Source: Bacteroidota bacterium (GTDB lineage Bacteria; Bacteroidota; Ignavibacteria; Kapaibacteriales; UBA2268). From it: 32,057 nt of DNA. Each line of letters opens with the position of its first letter. Positions within the stretch are counted from its first letter, which is position 1. Positions 2,107-27,507 of the stretch are shown here, piece after piece. The stretch is from the NCBI GenBank assembly GCA_041666585.1, contig JBAYGQ010000001.1, forward strand, positions 1 through 32,057, read 5' to 3'. Below the pieces are notes generated by a model. That model made no database searches and was not told the origin of the DNA. It saw only the letters and a program-made list of their open reading frames with translations. The position numbers and the translations under genes were made by a program.

Positions 2107-3036
2107 TTAATATTTTCCTTTTCTTTCTATATATATTTTACGATTCGGGAGAATTATTCTGATTTTGTTTTTCTCAATCATATATTTTTCCTCCTCATCC
2201 GTAAAAAGACGTTCAACTAGTTTTTCCCTGTCTCTTGAGCCTATAATTTTTATTGCCACTTTCTTACCGTTAGAATTTTTATCTATGACATTTTTTGCTA
2301 ATTTATATATATTAATTTCCTTCATTTTCAAAACCATTATTTCTAAACCAAGCATGATAGAAGTCGCATAAAAGACAAGGTTTACCGCTTCAGGAATAGA
2401 AATAAAAAATCTGTTCATTCTTTTATCTGTTACAGTTACTGACCGTCCTTGTTTAATCTGCTCTATCCAAGTCGGTATTACTGATCCTCGAGAATTAAGC
2501 ACATTTCCGAAACGCACTACTGCGAATTTGGTTTTTGCATCTCCCAGATAATTATGAGCGTTAATTATCATTCTCTCCATAAGGAGCTTAGTAATACCCA
2601 TAATAGTATTTGGATAGACTGCTTTATCTGTGGAAATTGCGACAACTTTCTCAATATTATGTTTGATAGCCAAATCTATAAGGTTCTGAGCACCATCAAC
2701 ATTAGTTTTAACCGCCTCAAAAGGATTGTATTCACAAAAAGGCACATGTTTCAAAGCGGCTGCGTGAAAAACATAATTAACATTTAACATCGCCTTATCT
2801 AACCTATCTTTATCACGGATATCTCCGATAAGATACCGTATATTTTCTTTTTTTTCTTCTGCTTCTAACTCTTGTTGTAAAAAATAATGCTTGGATTCAT
2901 CTCTTGAATATACTCTTACTTGTTTGGGGTGAAAATTCAACAACTGCCTAACTATTTCACTACCTATAGATCCCGTACCTCCAGTAACAAGAATAATTTT
3001 ATTTTTGAATATTTTCTCCAAACGATTATTTTTCAT
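2107..3036 (-). CDS. Nucleotide-sugar (NDP-GlcNAc) 4,6-dehydratase, short CapD/PglF/LegB-like extended SDR
   Basis: 309 aa. Rossmann motif ILVTGGTGSIGSEI, SRDESKH, HAAALKHVP, STDKAVYPNTIMGITKLLMERM (Polysacc_synt_2-type catalytic region). ATGA overlap with the downstream aminotransferase. Confidence 0.85.
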   Translation of the reverse strand: MKNNRLEKIFKNKIILVTGGTGSIGSEIVRQLLNFHPKQVRVYSRDESKHYFLQQELEAEEKKENIRYLIGDIRDKDRLDKAMLNVNYVFHAAALKHVPFCEYNPFEAVKTNVDGAQNLIDLAIKHNIEKVVAISTDKAVYPNTIMGITKLLMERMIINAHNYLGDAKTKFAVVRFGNVLNSRGSVIPTWIEQIKQGRSVTVTDKRMNRFFISIPEAVNLVFYATSIMLGLEIMVLKMKEINIYKLAKNVIDKNSNGKKVAIKIIGSRDREKLVERLFTDEEEKYMIEKNKIRIILPNRKIYIERKGKY

Positions 3037-4139
3037 AAGATTTTCTTTATTTCAGAACATATATACCTAATATCATCTTTTCTTAAACCGATAAAAAGCG
3101 GCAGAGCGAGAGTTTGAGAAGAGATCTTTTCCGCACAAGGAAAATCACCGTTGTTGAAACCGAACAGTTTTTTCATAAAAGGCTGCAAATGGATAACAGG
3201 TAAATAAGGTTTCGTTTGGATGTTCTTTTTCAATAATTTCTTCATCACTTCATCCCTTTTACCATTTACTATTCTGATAACGTAAACAAACCAAGAATGA
3301 GTCCTATTCAATCCAATTTTGGGAGTAATTATTGAACCTATTCCAGACAATTCTTTTTCATAGATAGCTGCGATTCTTCTCTTTTGATTGATCATCCAAT
3401 CGATTTTCCGCAACTGGGTTATCCCTAACGATGCGCTCATTTCATCCATCCGATAATTGTAGCCTAATCTTTCATGAAGAAGCCAATTTCCTTCCTCATC
3501 GCGGCCCTGATTACGCATACTTGAACATAACCTGACGATATTTTTCGAATTTGTCACAATCATTCCTCCTTCTCCGGTAGTCATCTGTTTATTTGGGTAA
3601 AAAGCATATACGCCAATATCACCAAAAGTGCCAGACATCTTATTTTTGTAACGAGATCCCAAACTTTCACACGCATCTTCAATAATACGTAATTTGTGTT
3701 TTTTGGCTATCTTAAGAATTTCAGACATATTTGCCGGTTGCCCGAATATATGTACGACTAATATGGCACGGGTTTTCGCGGTTATAGCCTTTTCAATTCT
3801 TTCATGATCAATATTACAAGTAGCATTTTCTATATCTACAAAAACCGGTTTTACTTTTTCATAAATCAGACAATTGGATGAGGAAATAAAAGAAAAAGGT
3901 GAAGTAATCACTTCATCGCCCTCTTTTAATCCCACGGCCCGAACAGCCAAATGGAGACCGCATGTACCATTAGAAACTGCGCATGCGTATTTGCATCCGA
4001 CATATTGGGAAATTTTTTTCTCAAACTCTATATATTTGGAACCAAGCGAAAGTTGTCCTGATTCAAGAACCTCCATAACCCCCTTTTTATCACGATCATC
4101 CAAAAATGGCCTTGCGACAGGAATATATCTATCTTTCAT
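3033..4139 (-). CDS. DegT/DnrJ/EryC1-family PLP aminotransferase (LegC/PglE-like 4-aminotransferase)
   Basis: 368 aa. DEVITSPFSFISSSN, and FYPNKQMTTGEGGMIV, which carries the putative Schiff-base lysine. It sits between the dehydratase and the acetyltransferase. Confidence 0.9.
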   Translation of the reverse strand: MKDRYIPVARPFLDDRDKKGVMEVLESGQLSLGSKYIEFEKKISQYVGCKYACAVSNGTCGLHLAVRAVGLKEGDEVITSPFSFISSSNCLIYEKVKPVFVDIENATCNIDHERIEKAITAKTRAILVVHIFGQPANMSEILKIAKKHKLRIIEDACESLGSRYKNKMSGTFGDIGVYAFYPNKQMTTGEGGMIVTNSKNIVRLCSSMRNQGRDEEGNWLLHERLGYNYRMDEMSASLGITQLRKIDWMINQKRRIAAIYEKELSGIGSIITPKIGLNRTHSWFVYVIRIVNGKRDEVMKKLLKKNIQTKPYLPVIHLQPFMKKLFGFNNGDFPCAEKISSQTLALPLFIGLRKDDIRYICSEIKKIL

Positions 4140-4143
4140 TGAA

Positions 4144-4761
4144 TTAGATTGACTTCTTTCTTTTAGCAGGAATACCTAAATACACACCGCGTGGTTTAGT
4201 ATCAGCAACAATAACTGAACTTGCTCCAATAATATTATTAGAAGCTACCGTTATATGATCGATAATTACGGCTCCCATACCAATAAAAGAATTATCTTTT
4301 ATAATTACTCCACCACCTGTTATAACTCCCGGTCCTATCTGAACATTATCACCAATATTATTATCATGCTCGATAATACAACCGGAATTAACAATCACAT
4401 TATCTCCGATCCTAGAACCGATATTAATATACGCATGAGCGCCAATCATGACATTTTTACCTAATCGGACGGATTTTTCAAGACGTGCGGAAGGATGAAT
4501 AGCGTTGATCAGATTTTTCCTTCCAACAGTTAAGCGTTTAAACCATTTTTTTCTCATAATGTCGCTACCGAATGATACAAAAAAATTATATGATTTTATA
4601 TCAAGAGAATTAATCATATTTAACGGACCTATCACTCCGTTTAACTTAAGATTGTCATCCACGAATGATATATCTTTCTTTCCGTTTTGTAAAAGAATAT
4701 TTTCCGCTACTCTTCCGTTTTCACCAGCGCCTAAAATAATGATTTTCCTCAATGATTTCAC
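4144..4761 (-). CDS. Hexapeptide-repeat N-acetyltransferase, NeuD/PglD/LegH family
   Basis: 205 aa. N-terminal Rossmann-like IIILGAGENGRV, then a left-handed beta-helix repeat region (IGDNVIVNSGCIIEHDNNIGDNVQIGPGVITGGGVIIKDNSFIGMGAVII). GTG start at 4761..4759 in a GTGA overlap with the upstream stop. Confidence 0.85.
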   Translation of the reverse strand: MKSLRKIIILGAGENGRVAENILLQNGKKDISFVDDNLKLNGVIGPLNMINSLDIKSYNFFVSFGSDIMRKKWFKRLTVGRKNLINAIHPSARLEKSVRLGKNVMIGAHAYINIGSRIGDNVIVNSGCIIEHDNNIGDNVQIGPGVITGGGVIIKDNSFIGMGAVIIDHITVASNNIIGASSVIVADTKPRGVYLGIPAKRKKSI

Positions 4762-5858
4762 AACTTGTCCTCTAATATATTAGTTATTAATGTTGAGGCA
4801 TGACCGTTACCATATATTCTAGGCGCATGGATGCATTTTTCTTTGAACCTGGGCGTAAGCGCGGTTTGGGTAGTCATAAGTAAATTATCGGCATTAAAAT
4901 CCGATTGAAGGACGTTAGATGATCTTTCACGCCCTTCTTGACGTCTACCTATATTTATCACTGGAAGAGATAAATACGCTGATTCAATAATTCCGGCGCT
5001 AGAATTACCCAATAGAAGGGTAGACTGTCTAAGTAGATTAATAAACTCGCTTCTTTGTATATTTTTGAATATTTTCAGATTTTCTAAATTTCGTATTTCT
5101 TCCAAATGAGAAATAATATCCTCGCTGCCGGTATCAGAATTGGGATATATCCATATTATTTGAGCATCAATTTGCGATAGGGCATTAAATATTACCGAGA
5201 ATTGTTGGTCTGGAGAGATATTTCTATCTAAGGGAGTCGGGTGAAGAATTACGACAATCCATTTTTTTGATGGATTTAAACATAATCTATCTGCTACCGT
5301 TTTTTTTGAACTTACGGGAATACCTATCAATCCATCTATGGCAGGAGAACCAACGAGAAAAACGTTTTTTCTCTCTTTTAATAGTTTAAGTCGCAAAGCG
5401 CTCTTTTTTGAGGCAGCGAAATTAAATGTCGACAAATGCGATATTGCACCTCTTAGGGAATTGTCAACTGTACACCCCCCTGATTTGTCTCCTCCGTGTA
5501 TATGGGCAACTGGTATACCTAAATGGCTTCCTACGATCGCCCCTGCAAAAGCTTCGTCACGATCTCCTAGAACCAAAACACAATCGGTCTTATGATTATT
5601 GCAATAATCGTTTATACCACTAATTTCTTCACTTAACCACTCAACCATATCCCCTTTCGGATTTACTGGTTGGACAAAGACCGAAGGAAACGTTTTGCGT
5701 ATCATAGAAGCGGTTTCACCATATTTTTTCAGAGTATGCATACCGGTTAGAAGAAGAGTTGGTCTAAGATTATTACTTTCTTTTAATTTCTCTATTATTG
5801 GTTCCAATAAACCGAATTCTGCTCTTGAACCGGAAATAACTAATATATTTTTTTTCAT
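4758..5858 (-). CDS. neuC: Hydrolysing NDP-N-acetylhexosamine 2-epimerase (NeuC/LegG family)
   Basis: 366 aa. VISGSRAEFGLLEPII at the N-terminus and AHIHGGDKSGG in the centre, as in UDP-hydrolysing 2-epimerases. ATGA overlaps on both sides. Confidence 0.88.
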   Translation of the reverse strand: MKKNILVISGSRAEFGLLEPIIEKLKESNNLRPTLLLTGMHTLKKYGETASMIRKTFPSVFVQPVNPKGDMVEWLSEEISGINDYCNNHKTDCVLVLGDRDEAFAGAIVGSHLGIPVAHIHGGDKSGGCTVDNSLRGAISHLSTFNFAASKKSALRLKLLKERKNVFLVGSPAIDGLIGIPVSSKKTVADRLCLNPSKKWIVVILHPTPLDRNISPDQQFSVIFNALSQIDAQIIWIYPNSDTGSEDIISHLEEIRNLENLKIFKNIQRSEFINLLRQSTLLLGNSSAGIIESAYLSLPVINIGRRQEGRERSSNVLQSDFNADNLLMTTQTALTPRFKEKCIHAPRIYGNGHASTLITNILEDKL

Positions 5859-6925
5859 TTTAGATCTTTTAGAAATATCTGATCATCTTTGTTAAAATTA
5901 TGAATAGTACGTTTTCCTATCAATTTTTCGTAAAGTGAGGGAGATAAACCGTCACCCGGTCTTTTTGATGCAAGATCAATAGCTTTTAATAAATGTCCTT
6001 TCGTCAAATCTTTCGAAACTACTAAGCTTTTTCTTATAAGGGGAATCATCTTTTTTGATTCATATTTTGTCGGCTTTTTAACATTTTTTCCCAGAATCTT
6101 TTTTATTTTTCGGATTAAACCAATTTTATTTTTTAATTCCTCTGGTTCCGCTGATGCGAGATGATCGGGTCCGGGCAACGATCTATCCAGAGTGAAATGA
6201 CATTCGTAAATAGAGGCGCCCAAAGTTACAGCCATAATTGCTGTTTGAAATCCTATCGTATGATCCGAATAACCGACAGGAACATTTAAGCTTTCTATCA
6301 TCGTTTGCATCGCAAGGAGATTTACTTCCTCTAACGGACAAGGATAATGATTAGTACAATGCAAAAACGCAATGTTACTAGCACCCTTTTTACCTAAATG
6401 ATTCATAGTTAATAATACCTCATTCAAATCAGCCATTCCGGTAGATAGAATCATAGGTTTTCGTAAAGAAACTATTTTATCGAGTAGAAGAAAATTGGTC
6501 AGATCTGCGGATCCGATTTTATAAGCTTCAATTCCCAAGGATTCCAAAAAGTTTATACTTTTAATCCCACCATGTGGAGTAGAAAGGAAAATTATCTTTC
6601 TTTTTAGACAGTGAGAAATAATCGGTTCATAAAATCTTTCTGGCAATTCCAAATCACGAAGCATTAATCTCTGGCTTTTTATTCTACCCGTGTTGATTTT
6701 CTGATAGTCTGTCATTTCAGCGTGTTTAGTTGCTACCTCATCAGCTTGAAAAGTCTGAAACTTAACTGCATCGGCATCGGCATCTGCCGCAACATCAACA
6801 AGCTTAATAGCCGTATTCAAATCACCATTATGGTTTACCCCCGCTTCTGCTATTACAAAACATTCATGCTCCTTTCCGATAGTTTTTGAACCTATTTTAA
6901 ATTGTCGTTTTATTTTATTATTCAT
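5855..6925 (-). CDS. neuB: Nonulosonic acid synthase (NeuB/LegI family) with C-terminal SAF domain
   Basis: ECFVIAEAGVNHNGDLNTAIKLVD, AVKFQTF, YSDHTIG, C-terminal SKDLTKGHLL...KRPGDGLSP. I place the start at ATG 6925..6923 (MNNKIKRQF...) because it gives an ATGA overlap with the upstream stop. The ORF track extends 4 codons further, to 6937. Confidence 0.9.
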   Translation of the reverse strand: MNNKIKRQFKIGSKTIGKEHECFVIAEAGVNHNGDLNTAIKLVDVAADADADAVKFQTFQADEVATKHAEMTDYQKINTGRIKSQRLMLRDLELPERFYEPIISHCLKRKIIFLSTPHGGIKSINFLESLGIEAYKIGSADLTNFLLLDKIVSLRKPMILSTGMADLNEVLLTMNHLGKKGASNIAFLHCTNHYPCPLEEVNLLAMQTMIESLNVPVGYSDHTIGFQTAIMAVTLGASIYECHFTLDRSLPGPDHLASAEPEELKNKIGLIRKIKKILGKNVKKPTKYESKKMIPLIRKSLVVSKDLTKGHLLKAIDLASKRPGDGLSPSLYEKLIGKRTIHNFNKDDQIFLKDLK

Positions 6926-7713
6926 ACAATACTCCAACCTCCATCAACTATTAGGGTAGCACCGGTAATATATGAGGCCGCATCGCTTGAAAGGAATAGG
7001 ACTGCTGATGCAACTTCTTCAGGCAAACCTAATCTTTTTAATGGAGTTTTTTTAGAATAATTAGCAACAAATAGTTTGTTTTGACGATTATAAATACCCC
7101 CAGGGCATATATTGTTTACACGAATATGATATTTGCCAAAATATGAAGCTAGATACCTTGTCATATTTATAATGCCTCCTTTAATTGCAGAATAGGCGAA
7201 AGGACTCGTCATATTCGTTCCCTCATAAACTGTAAAATCGTTACCCAATATTCCATATATAGAACCCATATTTACTACACTACCGTGCTTTTGTGAACTC
7301 ATCACAAGACAAACTTTTCTGCTTATCCAGGAATATGAATTCAAATGCATATCGATGTTCTTCCTCCATGATTCAAGAGTAGTTTTTTCAAGCTTTCTTC
7401 CCCAATCAATAGTTTTTGGATACGCAGTATTCACCCATACATCCATTCCATTGTATTTTTTATATAAAGATTCAATTACACGATCACAATTTTCAAGTTT
7501 CGTAATATCGAATTCTTCATAATATATTTGCAGTTCATCTTTTAAATTTTTATTAATAAACTTCTTACCCTTTGCTTTATCGTGACTTAACACAATCGTT
7601 TTTGCACCAACTGAAGCGAATGCTTTGGAAATCTCTGAACCGATAAGACCATTTCCTCCACATACAAAAGCAACTTTATTCTTTAAAGAAAATTTTCCGA
7701 GATAGTTTGTCAT
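6922..7713 (-). CDS. Classical short-chain dehydrogenase/reductase (PtmA-like), embedded in the NulO cassette
   Basis: 263 aa. VAFVCGGNGLIGSEI dinucleotide motif, YSAIKGG (YxxxK), C-terminal LIVDGGWSIV. Confidence 0.85.
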   Translation of the reverse strand: MTNYLGKFSLKNKVAFVCGGNGLIGSEISKAFASVGAKTIVLSHDKAKGKKFINKNLKDELQIYYEEFDITKLENCDRVIESLYKKYNGMDVWVNTAYPKTIDWGRKLEKTTLESWRKNIDMHLNSYSWISRKVCLVMSSQKHGSVVNMGSIYGILGNDFTVYEGTNMTSPFAYSAIKGGIINMTRYLASYFGKYHIRVNNICPGGIYNRQNKLFVANYSKKTPLKRLGLPEEVASAVLFLSSDAASYITGATLIVDGGWSIV

Positions 7714-8417
7714 ATTGTGACTAGACCTTTTTCAATCAAAAATTCTATATAATGAAAATCCATTTCTCTATCAATATCCACAGATGAATATTCATCCATA
7801 ATATATATATCAGACCTCTTCGAAATTGGAGATGAATTCTTCAAATTTTTTAGATATTCTCTTCGATAAATATATATTGATGCATTCATATCAAAAACAG
7901 GCGGAGCATCTTGTCTTCTGTGAATTCTTCTAGTTTTTTTACTCAAATATATTCCCTTTATATTTTTCTCAATCATATTAAAGTAAGGGTTTTTTCGTGA
8001 ATGAGTCACAGAGAATAAGGTGTCGGGCTTCACTTTATTAAATATAGTCAAAGATTTATTTAAGTCTTCTATCTTCCTTATGGGCGAAGTAGGATCAAGA
8101 TCGATAATCGTATCAAAATTTTCTCCAAATAACTTCTCGGATATATTCATTGCATGTCTTATTGCATCAAGTTTGGAAGACGTATCTGAGGCTAACGTTT
8201 TAGGTCTTAAAAAGGGCACTTCAGCCCCATATTTTTTCGCCAATATTGCGATTTTCCTGGAATCCGTACTTACGATAATATGTTTTGCTCTACCCCATCC
8301 AATAGCTTGTTTAATCGTGTAGTAGATCAGAGGTTTTCCCTGAAGTAACCTAATATTCTTATTTTTTATTCCTTTTGAACCGCCCCTAGCGCAGATTGTC
8401 AATAAAATATTTTGCAT
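7710..8417 (-). CDS. neuA: Acylneuraminate (NulO) cytidylyltransferase, copy 1 (NeuA/LegF family)
   Basis: 235 aa. ICARGGSKGIKNKNIRLL N-terminal CTP-binding motif, VSTDS, DPTSP (CTP_transf_3-type). Confidence 0.85.
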   Translation of the reverse strand: MQNILLTICARGGSKGIKNKNIRLLQGKPLIYYTIKQAIGWGRAKHIIVSTDSRKIAILAKKYGAEVPFLRPKTLASDTSSKLDAIRHAMNISEKLFGENFDTIIDLDPTSPIRKIEDLNKSLTIFNKVKPDTLFSVTHSRKNPYFNMIEKNIKGIYLSKKTRRIHRRQDAPPVFDMNASIYIYRREYLKNLKNSSPISKRSDIYIMDEYSSVDIDREMDFHYIEFLIEKGLVTI

Positions 8418-9362
8418 TTAATTTTTATCCTTAAAAAGAATAATTTGTTTGAATAAATCCGAAGCTTCAAATATATTATTCATCATCCTGGTATTCTCAA
8501 GATTGTCAAAAAAATATTCCAATTGTTTTTCATATGAGTTGTCTTTACCTCTAGTTAAATAATATTGATTAATTCTTTTATAGTTTTTGTATTCAGTAAT
8601 ACTGTTATTAATAAGATCGCCTTTAACAGATATTCTTTCATAATCAATAATTATATTTCTCTCCTGAATCTGACCAAAATAATTTACATATATGTTTACC
8701 GGACCTTTATCGCAAGTAAGTAAAATATCGGCATAATCTTCTGCGTCAGATGTTAATTTACTACGTTTTCCAAAAACACCTGCAATCTTATTCACTTTCC
8801 CGAATAAATATTCCGCGTAATCTATTTCATGAGAGAGATCAAGCACCACTCCACCTCCTTTTTTAGCAAAACGCGAATAGCTTTTTATATAATCTTGATC
8901 TTTTCTCCAGTTTGGGAGAAAAGAAGAACACACAATTCTCATATGAAGGGGTTTATTAAATTTCATATATTTTTTTAGCTCGATTATCACACTGTGAAAC
9001 CTTAAATTATAAGCTATGTACGTAACAGAATTATTCTTCTTTACCTCATTTAACAAATTATCTAAATCTTTTTTCCCGATACCTATAGGTTTTTCAATAA
9101 ATAGTTTACATCCTAATTCTGAGCATTTTCTTGCTGTTTCGATATGTAGATAGGTAGGATTTGTGATTAATGCTATATCTGGATGTAATTTTTTAAGCTC
9201 ATTCCAGGAATATATTTCATTTAACCCAAATTTATTAGTTTTAGGAGTAGTTTTGGATCTAAATGCGAATAGGGTTAAATCATTTCTTTTTTTCAATAAT
9301 TTTACATGTCTTATCCCGATTGAACCCATTCCAAAAATAACTACTTTCACGTTATTTTTCAT
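8418..9362 (-). CDS. Gfo/Idh/MocA-family NAD(P)-dependent oxidoreductase
   Basis: 314 aa. VVIFGMGSIGIRHV Rossmann motif and the family-typical FIEKPIG (EKP) motif. Its stop abuts the next start with no gap (TAAATG). Confidence 0.85.
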   Translation of the reverse strand: MKNNVKVVIFGMGSIGIRHVKLLKKRNDLTLFAFRSKTTPKTNKFGLNEIYSWNELKKLHPDIALITNPTYLHIETARKCSELGCKLFIEKPIGIGKKDLDNLLNEVKKNNSVTYIAYNLRFHSVIIELKKYMKFNKPLHMRIVCSSFLPNWRKDQDYIKSYSRFAKKGGGVVLDLSHEIDYAEYLFGKVNKIAGVFGKRSKLTSDAEDYADILLTCDKGPVNIYVNYFGQIQERNIIIDYERISVKGDLINNSITEYKNYKRINQYYLTRGKDNSYEKQLEYFFDNLENTRMMNNIFEASDLFKQIILFKDKN

Positions 9363-10062
9363 TTCTATTTAAAAAATATTCTGCTAGAAGAAAATCTGTT
9401 TCTTCGTCGATGTCTATCGAATCATAACTATTCATCAGATAAAATAGAGTTTTGGGAGTACAAAAACTTTTATAGTATACGAATTTGTTTGTTTTTGCTA
9501 TATACATTGCTCCATTTGGTATGTAATAAAGTAATTTAGTATTTGATTTTATATTAGTTATATTCTGACTGACAAAAGTATGAAGTGTTTTGCTTTTCTT
9601 AAAGGGTTTTACAACAAAAAGACTACTATGTGGTCTTGATGCAGAAATTAAACTATATGCTTCAGAGTTTGAGCTAATTTTTTCTATAGCATCATCTATT
9701 TGAAAAGTACTTCTTAAGGGTGAAGTCGGCTGTAATAGCATAGTATAAAAATATTTCTTATGTTCCTTATTTCTGAGCCATCTAATGGAATGTAAAATAG
9801 CTGATTCGCTCGAAGCGTGATCTGTTGCTAGATATTTCGGTCTTCTAAACGGCACCTCTGCTTTATATTTTTCGGAAATCTGTGCAATCTCGGATGAATC
9901 AGTGGATACAATCAATCGATCAATATACTTTGAATTCAAAGCTGACTTAATTGTCCAAGATATTAAGGGTTTACCGTTAAAATTTCTTATATTCTTTTTG
10001 GGAAGTCTTTTTGATTCGGATCTAGCTAAAATAATTGCTAGTATTGATTTATTTCCTATCAT
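9352..10062 (-). CDS. Acylneuraminate cytidylyltransferase-family protein, copy 2
   Basis: 236 aa. ILARSESKRLPKKNIRNF, VSTDSSEI, LLQPTSPLR. Same fold family as 7710-8417 but clearly divergent. It overlaps the downstream gene by 11 nt. Confidence 0.8.
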   Translation of the reverse strand: MIGNKSILAIILARSESKRLPKKNIRNFNGKPLISWTIKSALNSKYIDRLIVSTDSSEIAQISEKYKAEVPFRRPKYLATDHASSESAILHSIRWLRNKEHKKYFYTMLLQPTSPLRSTFQIDDAIEKISSNSEAYSLISASRPHSSLFVVKPFKKSKTLHTFVSQNITNIKSNTKLLYYIPNGAMYIAKTNKFVYYKSFCTPKTLFYLMNSYDSIDIDEETDFLLAEYFLNRNEK

Positions 10063-10140: not shown

Positions 10141-11682
10141 CTATTTATATTCGTTTACATTTAAAACTAATATATTATTTATACTATTGTTGTAGTAATT
10201 TTTATCAAAAAATTGGCTATAAGTTAGAAAAATTACGTTTTTTGGATCAAGACTATACGAACCTTTGTTAATAGTGATTAAATATTTCGGCTCCTCTGGT
10301 GAGTAGTCTTTGAGGTTAGAAAAAACGTTAAAAAATTCATTGTATTTTCTTACTGATTTTATATATTCATATTCCTGACTATTAATACCTAGTCTTTTTT
10401 GATCGCCAAAAGCTTTCCTCATAATACCCGTATACTCATAAAAGGCATAATGTCTATTTTTTAAATTATATTCTTTTGTTTTGTCATTGATTACGAACGT
10501 AAAATTATTCTTTATAATATCGTTTGTTTTTATACCTTCTACAAGAGAATCTTGCTTATACCAGTCTTTAATCAAAAAGTAATTATTTTTTAAATTATAA
10601 AAAACAAAAAGAACAACAATAATCGAGTAAATATAGTATTTTATCTTCTGATTTATTTTATGAATATCCAGCATATACCCGATCCCATAATACATAATTA
10701 ACGACACTCCAAGAGGAGTAAGAAGCAGATGCCTGCTATCCCAAAAGTCAAAAGACGGAGTATGGTTTGCGGCGAAATAAGGAAAAATAGCAATATATAA
10801 AATGAATAGACCTAGAATAAATAGTAAGAGCGACAATCGAGATTTAATGATATGTACGCTATTTTGCCTCATTAATATGATAAATACCACTAAACTGGAA
10901 AAAAATAGAATCCATAAATTTACAGAGTTTAATAACAGACTAAATAGATTGTAAAAATATGTATAGAAAAATCGTATAGATTCAATTGAAGCATTTGTTA
11001 AACTTTGAATTGTAATTCCATTGTAGCCTTCATACAGTCCATACGGTCTGAAAAATTTACTTTTTATGAACCAAAATATGAAAGGTAAAATTATAAAATC
11101 TGCATACTTCTTCAAAATTGAAAAATACGTGAGAATTTTCTTTCTTTTCTGTTTTTCCATATAGAACAGATACAAGATCACAATAAGATAAAATACTAAA
11201 TAGGATCCGGTTGCGAAAGAAACAAAGAAAGCGATTAAAGACACTAATCTAAAAATGTGTATATTTCGTTTAAGGTATCTATTTAATGACCATAACCCGA
11301 AAAAAAACAACGCATTAGATATCGAATAGGGAAGAAGTATTAATGCAATTCGCAAGTCATTTGCTGGAAGTAATACGAAGAATAATAGGATGAATATTCT
11401 TGATAATTTATCAATTTCTTTGATTTCAGATAGGATTTTTTCTAAAAATATTACTGGTAATAAGTTTAAAATAAAAATTAACAATCTATATACGAAAATA
11501 CTATCCGGTGCCCGCTGTAGAAATATATGTAAATACGAGACCCATGGAGATCCATATTGGGAAAATAATGAAATTAACGTTTCTGGAGATAAATTGTATA
11601 CACTAGTCCAATCATCCCAATATATTCCTTTATTTAACAACGATAACCCATAAGAGATGGTATATAGAATATATACAAACAT
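10141..11682 (-). CDS. Polytopic membrane protein, putative GT-C-fold glycosyltransferase or polymerase (function unassigned)
   Basis: 513 aa. About 10 or more hydrophobic helices, then a roughly 150-aa hydrophilic C-terminal domain. An acidic GIYWDDW motif follows the first helix, where GT-C enzymes carry catalytic Asp/Glu. No soluble-enzyme motifs. Confidence 0.7.
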   Translation of the reverse strand: MFVYILYTISYGLSLLNKGIYWDDWTSVYNLSPETLISLFSQYGSPWVSYLHIFLQRAPDSIFVYRLLIFILNLLPVIFLEKILSEIKEIDKLSRIFILLFFVLLPANDLRIALILLPYSISNALFFFGLWSLNRYLKRNIHIFRLVSLIAFFVSFATGSYLVFYLIVILYLFYMEKQKRKKILTYFSILKKYADFIILPFIFWFIKSKFFRPYGLYEGYNGITIQSLTNASIESIRFFYTYFYNLFSLLLNSVNLWILFFSSLVVFIILMRQNSVHIIKSRLSLLLFILGLFILYIAIFPYFAANHTPSFDFWDSRHLLLTPLGVSLIMYYGIGYMLDIHKINQKIKYYIYSIIVVLFVFYNLKNNYFLIKDWYKQDSLVEGIKTNDIIKNNFTFVINDKTKEYNLKNRHYAFYEYTGIMRKAFGDQKRLGINSQEYEYIKSVRKYNEFFNVFSNLKDYSPEEPKYLITINKGSYSLDPKNVIFLTYSQFFDKNYYNNSINNILVLNVNEYK

Positions 11683-24626: not shown

Positions 24627-25579
24627 ACCTGTATGTTTAATCTCTTCTTGTGATCGTTTAGGATCTCGTCTATTACGTAAGTAGGACGATCTTTCACTTC
24701 TTCGAAAATTATTTGGATGTATTTCCCTAGGATACTTATTCCGAGCATTTGGATACCGCCGAAGAATATTATCGCTGTAAGTAATGGGATAGAAGCGTTA
24801 ACTGGATTTCCAATTAAAAATACGGTAATAAGATAAAATAATAAAAAAATAAAGGAGACAATTACTAACATGAAACCAAGGGTCGTCATTACGTCTAAAG
24901 GTACGAAAGAAAAACCCAAAATTCCTCTTTGTGAATCTTTTATGTAATCCAGTAAATTATTTTTACTATTACCGTATCGTCTGGCTTTACGTTCATAAAT
25001 CACCTCTTTTACCGAAAATCCTGCCCATGCTCTGAGTCCTCTGAAGAACCGGTTTCTTTCAGGTAAATCGTTGATAACATTTAGTACTTTTCTATCTAAT
25101 AAACAAAAACTACCTGCGTTAAGAGGCATATTAATATTGGCGAGTTTATTAAATATCTTATAAAAACTTTTTCTTACAATTCGCATCAGTAAAGTATCTT
25201 GAATTTTATTACGTACTCCTATTACTACTTGAGATCCTTTTTCCCACTCTCTAATAAATATCGGAATAACTTCAGGCGGATCCTGGAGATCACAATCTAC
25301 GATTGTCACAGCATCTCCTTGTGCTTGCATCATTGCTGCTTGTGATGAATACTCAGAGGTAAAATTCCTAGACATCAATAGCACCGTAACTTTTTTATCC
25401 TTTTTTGCGATTTTTTTCAGGATGCTTCGTGAATTATCCTGACTACAATTATCCGTAAATATTATTTCGTAATCGTAATTTCGAAGAGTATTAAATAGTT
25501 TGACAATTTCTGTATAAGCGTTTTCAATATTTAGCTCTTCATTATATACGGGAATAATTACGGTTATTAATTTCTTCAT
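24623..25579 (-). CDS. GT2 polyprenol-phosphate glycosyltransferase (GtrB/ArnC/DPM1-like) with two C-terminal TM helices
   Basis: 318 aa. VIIPVYNEELNIE, FTDNCSQDNS, TIVDCDLQDPPE. C-terminal helices LGFMLVIVSFIFLLFYLITVFLI and LLTAIIFFGGIQMLGISILGKYI. Confidence 0.88.
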   Translation of the reverse strand: MKKLITVIIPVYNEELNIENAYTEIVKLFNTLRNYDYEIIFTDNCSQDNSRSILKKIAKKDKKVTVLLMSRNFTSEYSSQAAMMQAQGDAVTIVDCDLQDPPEVIPIFIREWEKGSQVVIGVRNKIQDTLLMRIVRKSFYKIFNKLANINMPLNAGSFCLLDRKVLNVINDLPERNRFFRGLRAWAGFSVKEVIYERKARRYGNSKNNLLDYIKDSQRGILGFSFVPLDVMTTLGFMLVIVSFIFLLFYLITVFLIGNPVNASIPLLTAIIFFGGIQMLGISILGKYIQIIFEEVKDRPTYVIDEILNDHKKRLNIQV

Positions 25580-26370
25580 ACGTTTGAATTTTTCACTCTT
25601 TTTTTCAGCATTTGTATCCTCTTATCATCTTCTAGGAATATTCGCGAATAATAATTTTTTTTATTCTCTAACCACAAAAGTTCAAAAGTGTTAGCTTTGA
25701 TAATACCATCTCCTAACTTTTGGAAACTTTTTGGCACTTTAAAAACTACTTTTCTTGTTTCGAAATAGTCTAATAAGTTTTTTGACGATAATTTCTTTAT
25801 GAAAGGAACTGCCTCTAAAGCGATCCCCCCACCCATAGCCGTTTTTAAACCCTTCTTCTTAGCCTTAATAAATATATCTTCCGCAATTTTGTAAATCTGA
25901 TCACAGTTTATTTGGTCTCGAGACAAACCTAAAGAACCCGACAAATCAACTCTACCCAGAGTGATTTTTCCTAAAATCTTCATAAGTTTTACGTTCAAGA
26001 TATCGTGAATATTATGATACGCCTGAATTGTTTCAATGTTAACTCCAAAAAGAATAGTTTTTCTGAGATCCTCCGGATAATGAGTTATCACTGCTTGAAG
26101 GAATTTTTCCAAGGCATAGGCACTTTCTACCATAGGTGCAACAAGCCCAGAGACTCCGATATGCTGGGATTCGAACATATCTGTAATAGCTTCAGGTCCC
26201 CCAATTTTTAGCACTAAACCTAACCCAACTCTTTCTACGATTTCCTTCAATCTCATAATTTCGCACAATCTCGACGCCTCGGCTTCAAATTCTGCTTTTA
26301 CTTCCACCACACCATAATGCTTCTTTAATTCAGTTAACACGTTAACCATCTTTATTTCCAAAGTGTTCAT
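25576..26370 (-). CDS. HpcH/HpaI aldolase / citrate-lyase-beta-like TIM-barrel protein
   Basis: 264 aa. APMVESAYALEKF (metal-binding Glu strand), FGVNIETIQAYHNIHDIL and LGRVDLSGSLGL (G..DLS.SLG) follow the order and spacing of family motifs. This is a by-eye assignment. Confidence 0.7.
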   Translation of the reverse strand: MNTLEIKMVNVLTELKKHYGVVEVKAEFEAEASRLCEIMRLKEIVERVGLGLVLKIGGPEAITDMFESQHIGVSGLVAPMVESAYALEKFLQAVITHYPEDLRKTILFGVNIETIQAYHNIHDILNVKLMKILGKITLGRVDLSGSLGLSRDQINCDQIYKIAEDIFIKAKKKGLKTAMGGGIALEAVPFIKKLSSKNLLDYFETRKVVFKVPKSFQKLGDGIIKANTFELLWLENKKNYYSRIFLEDDKRIQMLKKRVKNSNV

Positions 26371-26412
26371 ATTACTTTAAAATAGTTAATTTTAATAATA
26401 ATTTAACAATAT

Positions 26413-27507
26413 TTAGTTAATAAAACTCGAGATACATTGATAAAATTCTGAATAATCGGATTTATACTCGTCTACATTATAATCTAATATTTTATTCATT
26501 CTTAAATTATTATCAGGCAATACTAATGCGAGGTCTTTTGTAGTTCTCTTTTTATCGTACATCATTTTTCTTAATATCCCGTCTCTATTAAAATAATCTT
26601 TTTTTATTTTAAGGATTTTAAAGGGAATTCCGGGAAATAATATTTTTTTATTAATATAATTAAATATATTTTTGTTCAACCATCCTTTTCTGAAAGAAAC
26701 TAAATTTGAGAATATAATTCCGAAAATAATAGCAGTTCCGTGAGGAATATTATAATCACTATATGATTCCAATGCATGACCGAAACAATGTCCATAGTTA
26801 AGAAGATTTCTCTTTCCATAATCCTTCTCATCACCAATCATGTAATCTAATTTTATTTTCATTGATTCCTTTATTATATTAATAAGAATTTCATTATCTC
26901 TGCAACTTATTAACTTGTTAAGCTTGGTATGAATTTGTTCCAACTTATTCATTGAATTTTTATCCATAAGTAGTAATTTAATTATCTCTCCCAAACCGCT
27001 ATAGTAATCTATTTCTTTCAAAGTTTTTAGAAATGAGACGTCTATGATAATATCTTCAGGAGAGTAAAATGTTCCCAGAACGTTCTTGTAGGATTTAAAA
27101 TTGAGCGATGTTTTTAACCCTATGGCACTATCTGCCTGTGAAAGCAAAGTAGTTGGAATATATATCCAACGAATACCTCTATATAATGTTGATGCTGTAA
27201 ATCCTACAACATCTTGATTGATACCTCCACCGAAAGAAATTACCTTCAAATTTTTTTTAGCGGAGAATTTAAGCAGTTTATTAGCCAAATGGGATACGGT
27301 GGAAAAGTTTTTTGTTTTTTCGTCTAGAGTAAGAATAATTATGTGCTTCTTCGAAAAACCATTAAAAATATTATTTTTATATAATTTATATACGTTTCTC
27401 CCTACAACAATTATCGAATTTTGATTATTCGCCCAGAGTTCTTTGATGAAATCTAAATTTTCAGAAAATTTAACATTTATGTTGCCAATTTTGGTTCTTA
27501 TTAACAT
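26413..27507 (-). CDS. 3-dehydroquinate synthase-like sugar-phosphate cyclase superfamily protein (divergent)
   Basis: 364 aa. FGGGINQDVVGFTASTLYRGIRWIYIPTTLLSQADSAIGLKTSLNF..YKNVLGTFYSP, GLGEIIKLLL, GKRNLLNYGHCFGHALE, IPHGTAIIFGI. NAD-binding and Glu/His/His metal motifs are present. GGK->GLK and HGEAV->HGTAI deviate from housekeeping AroB. Confidence 0.8.
   Translation of the reverse strand: MLIRTKIGNINVKFSENLDFIKELWANNQNSIIVVGRNVYKLYKNNIFNGFSKKHIIILTLDEKTKNFSTVSHLANKLLKFSAKKNLKVISFGGGINQDVVGFTASTLYRGIRWIYIPTTLLSQADSAIGLKTSLNFKSYKNVLGTFYSPEDIIIDVSFLKTLKEIDYYSGLGEIIKLLLMDKNSMNKLEQIHTKLNKLISCRDNEILINIIKESMKIKLDYMIGDEKDYGKRNLLNYGHCFGHALESYSDYNIPHGTAIIFGIIFSNLVSFRKGWLNKNIFNYINKKILFPGIPFKILKIKKDYFNRDGILRKMMYDKKRTTKDLALVLPDNNLRMNKILDYNVDEYKSDYSEFYQCISSFIN

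Follow-up and report, generated by a model that had tools for sequence, protein, structure and literature searches.

Stereoisomers of the nonulosonic acids (NulOs) decide how bacterial surfaces are recognized by antibodies, phages and lectins, and the prediction from sequence of which isomer a locus makes is still unreliable. The problem is posed by a 32,057-nucleotide stretch of DNA from a Bacteroidota bacterium (Kapaibacteriales, UBA2268; assembly GCA_041666585.1, contig JBAYGQ010000001.1, positions 1 to 32,057), hereafter the window, in which an operon of the legionaminic acid (Leg) type carries, directly before its synthase gene, a Gfo/Idh/MocA oxidoreductase (Gfo), a short-chain dehydrogenase/reductase (SDR) and two cytidylyltransferases, here named CT1 and CT2. 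Why should such an operon encode two enzymes for activation with cytidine monophosphate (CMP), and what is the role of the redox pair? A preliminary description of the window proposed that oxidation and re-reduction give a stereoisomer of Leg, as in loci for 8-epilegionaminic acid (8eLeg), a proposal that gains support from the comparisons reported below. The reading we favour, with a probability of roughly 0.55, is that the window contains a Leg operon of the UDP-N-acetylglucosamine (UDP-GlcNAc) type into which a mobile Gfo-CT1-SDR module has been inserted, and that the product is a CMP-activated epimer of Leg, probably at C8.

Gene layout and the two cytidylyltransferases

The open reading frames (ORFs) of the window were listed and assigned to families by searches with Pfam and NCBIfam profiles. 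Four intact ORFs on the minus strand, overlapping or abutting as the preliminary description had it, encode CT2, a stand-alone CMP-nonulosonate synthetase of the LegF/NeuA type (9352-10062, 236 amino acids (aa); Pfam CTP_transf_3, E 5.7e-25), an ElaA/PtmF-type Gfo (8418-9362, 314 aa; PF01408, PF22725 and PF02894, the N- and C-terminal GFO_IDH_MocA domains matching at E 1.4e-11 and 3e-8), the module-linked CT1, of the ElaB/PtmB type (7710-8417, 235 aa; CTP_transf_3, E 3.4e-22), and a classical SDR of the ElaC/PtmA type (6922-7713, 263 aa; adh_short_C2, E 1.9e-42). All four proteins retain the catalytic motifs of their families. Although the coordinates first given for these genes were right, all of them lie on the minus strand and the supposed second transferase, CT2, is therefore the first gene of the four-gene block to be transcribed. 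Transcription continues through Gfo, CT1 and SDR directly into a Leg core comprising the synthase NeuB, NeuC, an acetyltransferase, an aminotransferase and a 4,6-dehydratase, and then into genes for HisF-like, HisH-like and PseA-like proteins. Gfo overlaps CT2 by 11 nucleotides (nt), CT1 abuts Gfo, the SDR overlaps CT1 by 4 nt, and the SDR stop codon overlaps an ATG of the NeuB gene at 6925 (ATGA). The synthase (5855-6937, minus strand) is of the NeuB/LegI type, with a Pfam NeuB match at E 1.7e-79, a SAF domain and a score of 394 bits to TIGR03569, for which the cut-off is 399.65. The ORF listing puts its start at a TTG codon at 6937; the in-frame ATG at 6925, overlapping the SDR stop codon and giving a protein of 356 aa, is the more likely start.

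It was initially held that the second transferase is divergent, a view that does not survive comparison with characterized and database enzymes. The top matches of CT2 in the Protein Data Bank (PDB) are CMP-N-acetylneuraminic acid (CMP-NeuAc) synthetases (6ifd, 126 bits; 1eyr, 111 bits), and as 6ifd scores 110 bits against CT1, CT2 is the more NeuA/LegF-like of the two enzymes, which are 35% identical. Those of its 4533 homologues that are named carry the annotation CMP-N,N'-diacetyllegionaminic acid synthase or NeuA, and with 146 bits to the PseF model TIGR03584, against a cut-off of 205.7, CT2 is not a PseF equivalog. CT2 and the stand-alone cytidylyltransferase of the Escherichia coli O161 Leg locus are reciprocal best hits (39% identity, E 7e-50, 154 bits), whereas CT2 scores 87 and 77 bits against the enzymes that accompany Gfo genes in E. 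coli O61 and O108, respectively. It is CT1 that resembles these latter enzymes, with 33-36% identity (36% and 130 bits for O61).

The same division emerged from an IQ-TREE phylogeny of 102 CTP_transf_3 proteins, in which two clades are split at 100/98 support. Clade A consists of stand-alone enzymes, that is CT2, its database relatives and the O161 protein, while clade B contains CT1, 62 Gfo-linked enzymes and the O108 and O61 proteins. Both clades retain AR..SK....KN, TSPxR, N[GA]xxY and DIDxxxD; in the substrate region clade A has LLQPTSP, whereas clade B has DLDxTSP together with NPYFNM and RRQD, motifs that appear in CT1 as DLDxTSP, NPYFNM and RRQDAP. The split provides a practical marker with which to annotate stand-alone and module-linked transferases.

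In CT2 the motifs AR..SK....KN, LLQPTSPLR, NGAMY and DIDEETD are intact. The dimerization-domain motif RRQD, common in CMP-NeuAc/Leg synthetases and near-invariant in clade B, is absent from residues ~165-180 of CT2 (window ~9520-9570), as it is across the CT2 subclade, including the three closest relatives on usable contigs (L092-L094). As the motif is missing from this entire subclade, the members of which serve as the sole transferase of their cassettes, its absence from CT2 is not decay. Similarly, CT2 is 47-51% identical to its counterparts in L092-L094, which share 54-57% identity among themselves, but NeuB diverges by an equal offset, and there is thus no sign of decay in CT2. Its fold, motifs, clade placement and NeuB-adjoining relatives are those of a stand-alone LegF/NeuA-type enzyme, apparently a normal one that predates the arrival of the module; among the four genes it is nonetheless CT2 that is truly unusual.

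These properties also bear on whether CT2 activates an altogether different ulosonic acid, such as 3-deoxy-D-manno-octulosonic acid (Kdo) or the product of an HpcH/HpaI aldolase cassette, and is a neighbour of the module by chance. Such a cassette (25576-27507) and a dehydroquinate (DHQ)-synthase-like gene are present in the same operon-rich window, and no third CTP_transf_3 gene scoring above 60 bits was found in the assembled genome (3.05 Mb in 562 contigs, 35.6% GC, ~80% complete, 4% contamination). The closest relatives of CT2, however, are always located directly before NeuB in minimal Leg cassettes, CT2 groups with enzymes annotated as LegF or NeuA and with the O161 Leg enzyme, and its scores against KdsB models, 40-52 bits, compare with cut-offs of 155-281. 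We therefore attach very little credence to this explanation.

Position and distribution of the Gfo-CT1-SDR module

The three loci that contain the closest relatives of CT2 reveal what the cassette looks like when the redox genes are missing. In these minimal, UDP-GlcNAc-based Leg cassettes, which follow the lgaABCDEG-type logic of Legionella and Acinetobacter, the cytidylyltransferase is directly upstream of NeuB, the gene order is transferase-NeuB-NeuC-(acetyltransferase)-aminotransferase-dehydratase-HisF-HisH-PseA-like, and neither Gfo nor SDR occurs across 11-20 kb. The window matches this order; its aminotransferase shares 65-69% identity with those of the cassettes, its dehydratase 63-71% and its NeuB 52-59%, and it differs in that it alone has 2.4 kb of Gfo, CT1 and SDR placed exactly between cytidylyltransferase and NeuB. 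As the cassettes are collinear apart from the module, the latter seems to have been inserted, between CT2 and NeuB, into a cassette of this kind. Among the nearest Gfo relatives it forms a separate unit of three genes, commonly divergent from NeuB and in no case with a transferase upstream of it. Only one of 60 genomes from the same family or order contains a Gfo homologue (31% identity), a sporadic occurrence which suggests that the module was probably acquired horizontally.

The module is widespread. A genome scan with Gfo yielded 80 loci, onto which the window proteins were mapped, from the candidate phyla radiation (CPR), Omnitrophota, Planctomycetota, Proteobacteria and Firmicutes, and from DPANN, Asgard and Thermoplasmatota archaea. 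The order Gfo-CT1-SDR, in the same orientation, is found in 45 of these 80 loci, and a further 16, most of them from Firmicutes that have two paralogues of Gfo, encode Gfo and CT1 but no SDR. Gfo is usually preceded by a PtmE-like or PseA-like gene. Among the 33 long module loci, those with at least 18 kb of sequence each, NeuB is encoded within 10 kb in 30, NeuC in 29 and a PtmE-like CBS-nucleotidyltransferase in 20. A co-occurrence check proposed in the preliminary description thus finds the trio tightly linked to NulO loci, the opposite of an unrelated distribution. To remove the bias of starting from Gfo, metagenome contigs were scanned with a CT1-type profile, and here Gfo was directly upstream in 44 of the 50 loci with enough sequence, the next gene downstream encoded an SDR in 50 of 60, and 37 of 44 had all three genes.

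Predicted gene fusions tell a similar story. CT1-SDR fusions of 493-527 aa were found in a Planctomycetales metagenome-assembled genome (MAG), a gammaproteobacterial MAG and a metagenome contig (L013:10887-12470, L006:10926-12449 and L129:3114-4595), and a Gfo-CT1 fusion of 565 aa in a Methanosarcinales MAG (L048:10001-11698). Fusions in four unrelated loci tie the module transferase functionally to the redox pair, in the manner of Rosetta-stone evidence. The linkage counts and fusions together indicate that Gfo-CT1-SDR is a genuine functional unit, closely coupled and joined to pathways for nonulosonates. The analysis shows this unit to be portable, to span phyla and to have its own cytidylyltransferase lineage. 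The genes described initially as extra are indeed an accessory set, but one that is common and already described, and in themselves they are no oddity.

What is rare is the combination with a second transferase. A second, clade-A-type enzyme lies in the 6-10 kb flanks of the module in only 1 of the 33 long genome loci and near it in 2 of 80 metagenome loci (L145 and L190), both of which look like second NulO pathways, with a second NeuB in L145 and a further dehydratase and aminotransferase in L190. In none of the ~165 loci examined is a cytidylyltransferase immediately upstream of Gfo. Two genomes of the same order are more elaborate, with a pair of nonulosonate gene sets on a single contig: G046:C59:36000-55999 (L107) clearly comprises two full pathways, both including a NeuB, in the form of a canonical NeuC-NeuB-acetyltransferase-PtmE-Gfo-CT-SDR block and a second dehydratase-aminotransferase-NeuB-CT set, and G039:C69:5000-22000 (L108) has one PtmE, at least one NeuB and two each of stand-alone transferases and NeuC-type genes. 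The window thus shows a known system in a rare architecture rather than a system of a new kind, the unusual part being a module that sits within a transferase-NeuB cassette which keeps its own LegF-type enzyme and lacks PtmE.

There is also the question of whether the redox enzymes act on the nonulosonate at all. It could instead be that Gfo (as PtmF) and the SDR (as PtmA) aid formation of the hexosamine precursor, in the conversion of fructose-6-P to GlcN-6-P for GDP-GlcNAc, as in the Campylobacter route to Leg (PtmE, PgmL, LegB). The Plesiomonas paper, after Schoenhofen 2009, assigns PtmA to the initial (GDP-GlcNAc) stage of the route, a ptmA mutant is without flagella, and PtmE-PtmF-LegF-PtmA are contiguous there (PMC4481668) as they are in 20 of the 33 long loci. 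In contrast, NeuB is present and PtmE absent in the other 13, the fusions join redox enzymes to a cytidylyltransferase and never to PtmE, and Leg is made in E. coli O161 with PtmE present and both Gfo and SDR missing. The window itself has no PtmE-type CBS-nucleotidyltransferase, and the sole match in the assembled genome is a partial one (33%), covering the NTP-transferase half, to a generic NTP-transferase domain on contig C261. Furthermore, neither the Gfo/Idh/MocA nor the SDR family is known to catalyse amidotransferase or isomerase reactions. The modules without PtmE and the fusions to cytidylyltransferases lead us to favour a nonulosonate role, and make a role in hexosamine supply quite improbable; the findings thus bear on the competing proposals for the function of PtmF and PtmA.

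Two variants of the module were also observed. In ten loci from Firmicutes and Thermotogota (L067-L073, L076, L079 and L080) two tandem Gfo paralogues are followed by a clade-B transferase without an SDR, and the transferases of this two-Gfo variant form their own long-branched subclade in the tree. In L111:7001-9386 and L112:7001-9418, which are among the closest Gfo relatives, a Gfo-CT-SDR unit has no NeuB within 7 kb and adjoins two weak Gfo-like genes, a ~600-aa protein without a Pfam match and split transketolase genes, from which it appears that the module may serve other pathways too.

The redox pair and the proposed route to a Leg epimer

Likeness to the Ela and Ptm proteins was measured through homologues from E. 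coli O108 and O61 as stand-ins. PMC7685785 and the titles that it cites give the O161 antigen as containing a Leg derivative and those of O108 and O61 as containing 8eLeg. The O161 locus encodes a dehydratase, LegC, NeuB, NeuC, a PtmE-like protein and one cytidylyltransferase, without Gfo or SDR, while in the O108 and O61 loci this core and PtmE-like protein are joined by a Gfo/Idh/MocA protein, a cytidylyltransferase and an SDR annotated as 'oxidoreductase'. Gfo, CT1 and SDR of the window are reciprocal best hits of these O108/O61 module genes when the reverse search is made in the window genome. Gfo is 29-30% identical to its E. coli counterparts (29.6%, E 2e-29, for O108), and in searches of the complete O108 and O61 chromosomes its top match by far is the O-antigen Gfo, at E 4e-27, the next being 6e-5. 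Full-length alignment with the E. coli proteins reveals common GxGxIxxRH, EKP (K91), LPxWR and GGGxxLxLSHExDY (H178) motifs, and K91 and H178 are invariant in both Gfo alignments (A1 and A2), in which the O108 and O61 proteins are included. The SDR, which has a GGNGLIG cofactor motif and a YSAIK catalytic pair, is 32-33% identical to the O108/O61 'oxidoreductase' (E 5e-47). It scores 228 bits to PRK09186, under the cut-off of that model, and 161 bits to FlagModPtmA (NF050062), for which the cut-off is 350; by this score it is a related SDR but not a PtmA equivalog.

The E. coli loci differ from the window in several respects. PtmE-Gfo-CT-SDR there follow NeuC, NeuB and the acetyltransferase; each locus has one cytidylyltransferase whereas the window has one of each type; long dehydratases of the LegB/LegC type and PtmE contrast with the short Polysacc_synt_2 dehydratase and absent PtmE of the window; and export is by Wzx/Wzy rather than by the Wzm/Wzt ABC transporter that the window encodes.

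The Acinetobacter baumannii KL49 capsule locus provides a functional framework. Here ElaA is a Gfo/Idh/MocA protein of 323 aa with catalytic K91 and H181, ElaB a CTP-transferase and ElaC an SDR, and structures and knock-outs led to the proposed route Leg5,7Ac2 to CMP-Leg, CMP-8-keto-Leg and CMP-8-epi-Leg; deletion of each ela gene markedly reduced capsule (on gels it was abolished) and abolished lethality in mice (PMC13656337). In Acinetobacter K loci lgaABCDEFG gives Leg and lgaABCDEF/elaABC gives 8eLeg (PMC9676051). All three families are found in the window, in the order of KL49, and in both cases a Leg core is attached. In KL49, however, ElaB is the sole cytidylyltransferase and the module replaces LgaG, whereas the window keeps the LegF/LgaG-type CT2 upstream, and KL49 has the PtmE-like LgaF, which has no equivalent in the window. 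The similarity, as gauged via the E. coli homologues only, is about 30-36%, and the equation of the EKP lysine and SHE histidine of Gfo with K91 and H181 of ElaA, and of the Tyr/Lys pair of the SDR with Y168 and K172 of ElaC, is by position and motif only. A likeness of Gfo to ElaA is also indicated by 3ezy, its closest match in a PDB sequence search and the closest structure to ElaA (PMC13656337); ElaA, ElaB and ElaC themselves had no structures among the matches of the PDB sequence searches with the four window proteins, and a tblastn search of plasmids with Gfo returned matches of 24-31% identity only.

A comparable gene order is known from flagellar glycosylation. Leg loci of Plesiomonas, Vibrio fischeri, E. 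coli and Campylobacter have the order PtmE-PtmF-LegF-PtmA, which by synteny makes LegF/PtmB of Campylobacter the module transferase (PMC4481668 Table 5). The ptmE-ptmF-ptmB(legF)-ptmA arrangement of Campylobacter jejuni/coli and Plesiomonas resembles the window both in its Gfo-CT-SDR order and in having a nucleotidyltransferase gene upstream of Gfo. In Campylobacter, though, that gene encodes PtmE (CBS and NTP_transferase domains, a GlcN-1-P guanylyltransferase), in contrast with the CTP_transf_3 enzyme of the window, and the target is flagellin rather than an ABC-exported polysaccharide.

As gene order, reciprocal best hits and active-site motifs are shared with 8eLeg loci, the same regiochemistry is the simplest assumption. 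In the pathway that we infer, the dehydratase (Polysacc_synt_2, 2107-3036), a DegT aminotransferase (3033-4139), a NeuD/PglD acetyltransferase (4144-4761), a NeuC-type hydrolysing 2-epimerase (4758-5858), all assigned by Pfam/NCBIfam and on the minus strand, and NeuB would generate Leg5Ac7Ac from UDP-GlcNAc, a start that is indicated by the presence of a hydrolysing epimerase of the NeuC type and a synthase of the NeuB type and by the lack of PtmE. A cytidylyltransferase would then make CMP-Leg, Gfo, dependent on NAD(P)+, would oxidize a side-chain hydroxyl to the ketone, at C8 by analogy with ElaA, and the SDR would return hydride from the opposite face to yield a CMP-activated epimer of the 8-epi-Leg type. 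One N-acetyl group would probably be turned into an acetamidino group by the HisF-like protein (1189-2055; Pfam His_biosynth), the HisH-like glutaminase (520-1185; Pfam GATase) and the PseA-like amidotransferase (2-547), also on the minus strand, which we regard as probably an acetamidino tailoring trio. The last of these genes leaves the window at its end, and its product, an N-terminal part, was assigned by its 68-76% identity to the beginning of proteins of ~410 aa encoded in L001, L092 and L094. Most simply, CT2 would be the original synthetase of the cassette, retained and either redundant with CT1 or adding flux.

Several points weigh against this route to a C8 epimer. The placing of the epimerization at C8 is by analogy, at ~30% identity. 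The Campylobacter flagellin sugar, in work attributed to McNally 2007 and Schoenhofen 2009, is said to be Leg and not 8-epi-Leg despite the presence of PtmF-PtmB-PtmA; carriage of the module does not, then, strictly predict the 8-epimer, and for this reason the C8 prediction is held at no more than about 0.55. If the redox pair acts on CMP-Leg one transferase suffices, and an intact, motif-complete CT2 that is translationally coupled to Gfo would in that case be a recent relic at best, or otherwise unexplained. Finally, there is no compositional seam across CT2, Gfo, CT1, SDR and NeuB (third-codon-position GC (GC3) 0.22-0.28), such that composition neither shows nor dates a recent insertion.

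The first of these points invites the suggestion that the same redox pair has another outcome, either epimerization at a different carbon (for example C4, of the 4-epi-Leg type) or a keto product that serves as a branch point for tailoring. The low identity shared with enzymes of the E. coli and Acinetobacter types is compatible with this, as is the fact that the 328 Gfo relatives found (top identity 56%) come mostly from uncultured lineages, with the window-type Gfo clade forming a lineage of its own whose members are for the most part uncultured. Leg occurs naturally as several isomers (PMC12053666), and the replacement of the SDR by a second Gfo paralogue in Firmicute loci indicates that the module is chemically plastic. 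No extra aminotransferase or tailoring gene, however, is attached to the window module, and given the features shared with 8eLeg loci, set out above, we consider such an outcome unlikely.

The presence of two transferases can also be explained by a branch point, in which CT2 makes CMP-Leg for one glycosyltransferase while the module oxidizes and epimerizes the sugar as free acid or as keto intermediate, and CT1, specific for the modified sugar, activates it. A single synthase would in this way supply the glycan with two different CMP-nonulosonates. An instructive case is the A. baumannii prophage pair EpaA, a CTP_transf_3 and aldo-keto reductase protein, and EpaB, an SDR, which convert pseudaminic acid (Pse) to 8-epipseudaminic acid (8ePse) in a strain whose K locus already has PsaF (PMC12053666). 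As in the window, a redox pair with its own CTP_transf_3 domain is kept beside a resident transferase, and the transferase-reductase fusion in EpaA parallels the CT1-SDR and Gfo-CT1 fusions. The prophage system differs in that it has an aldo-keto reductase and not Gfo, acts on Pse, comprises two genes and is located away from the sugar locus. In addition to this precedent, both CT1 and CT2 are intact and belong to strongly separated clades with different substrate-region motifs, the module retains its own transferase almost everywhere, even fused with it, and the assembled genome, ~80% complete, contains no second NeuB. In contrast, a CT1-type enzyme is the sole transferase in 32 of the 33 long loci, and so must accept the NeuB product or a direct derivative of it. 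LegF/PtmB of Campylobacter reportedly activates Leg5Ac7Ac itself. A few Gfo-SDR pairs (L038 and L077) work with a clade-A transferase and no CT1, and no second candidate for a NulO transferase was identified. It should be emphasized that under the published order of reactions a second transferase is unneeded, and yet EpaA/EpaB keeps its own, and the branch is thus retained as a tentative and rather doubtful alternative. The same degree of doubt attaches to the idea that clade-B enzymes (CT1, ElaB, PtmB and the N-terminal domain of EpaA) are specialized for an oxidized or epimerized nonulosonate, or for delivery of the sugar to the redox pair, whereby the order would depart from 'activate, oxidize, reduce'; were this so, the operon, with its one synthase, would produce two stereoisomers of the CMP-nonulosonate. 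With both types of transferase in one operon, the window is a natural test case for whether epimerization precedes or follows CMP activation.

Neighbouring genes and genome context

A scan of the window for promoters and terminators performed at the level of chance, with 68 sites where 65.8 were expected and 6 where 7.3 were. The acetamidino-type trio of HisF-, HisH- and PseA-like genes is a frequent companion of the module, being present within 10 kb of it in 18 of the 33 long loci.

Upstream of CT2 is a gene for a 513-aa protein (10141-11682) without a Pfam match; this protein is polytopic and, besides a soluble tail of ~150 aa, has about six hydrophobic segments. It was considered as a NulO transferase coupled to CT2, an assignment that was dropped as the protein is a GT-C-like polytopic membrane protein that is not conserved beside the relatives of CT2. 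A paralogue (33-38% identity) is encoded at C105:2901-4355 of the genome, beside another DegT aminotransferase gene.

The window is the largest contig of the assembly. On contig C504 a 282-aa fragment of EF-Tu shares 90-93% identity with sequences from Ignavibacteria, Kapabacteria and FCB-group MAGs, which suggests, provisionally in view of the 4% contamination, a host of the class Ignavibacteria. Elsewhere in the genome, contig C148 (939-5928) has a cluster comprising a PtmA-like SDR (136 bits to NF050062), a Gfo-like gene, an aldo-keto reductase, an HpcH-type aldolase and an MFS transporter. Although this cluster was a candidate for a second NulO locus, the aldolase, aldo-keto reductase and transporter give it the appearance of a catabolic system, probably one for a sugar acid and without relation to the NulO locus.

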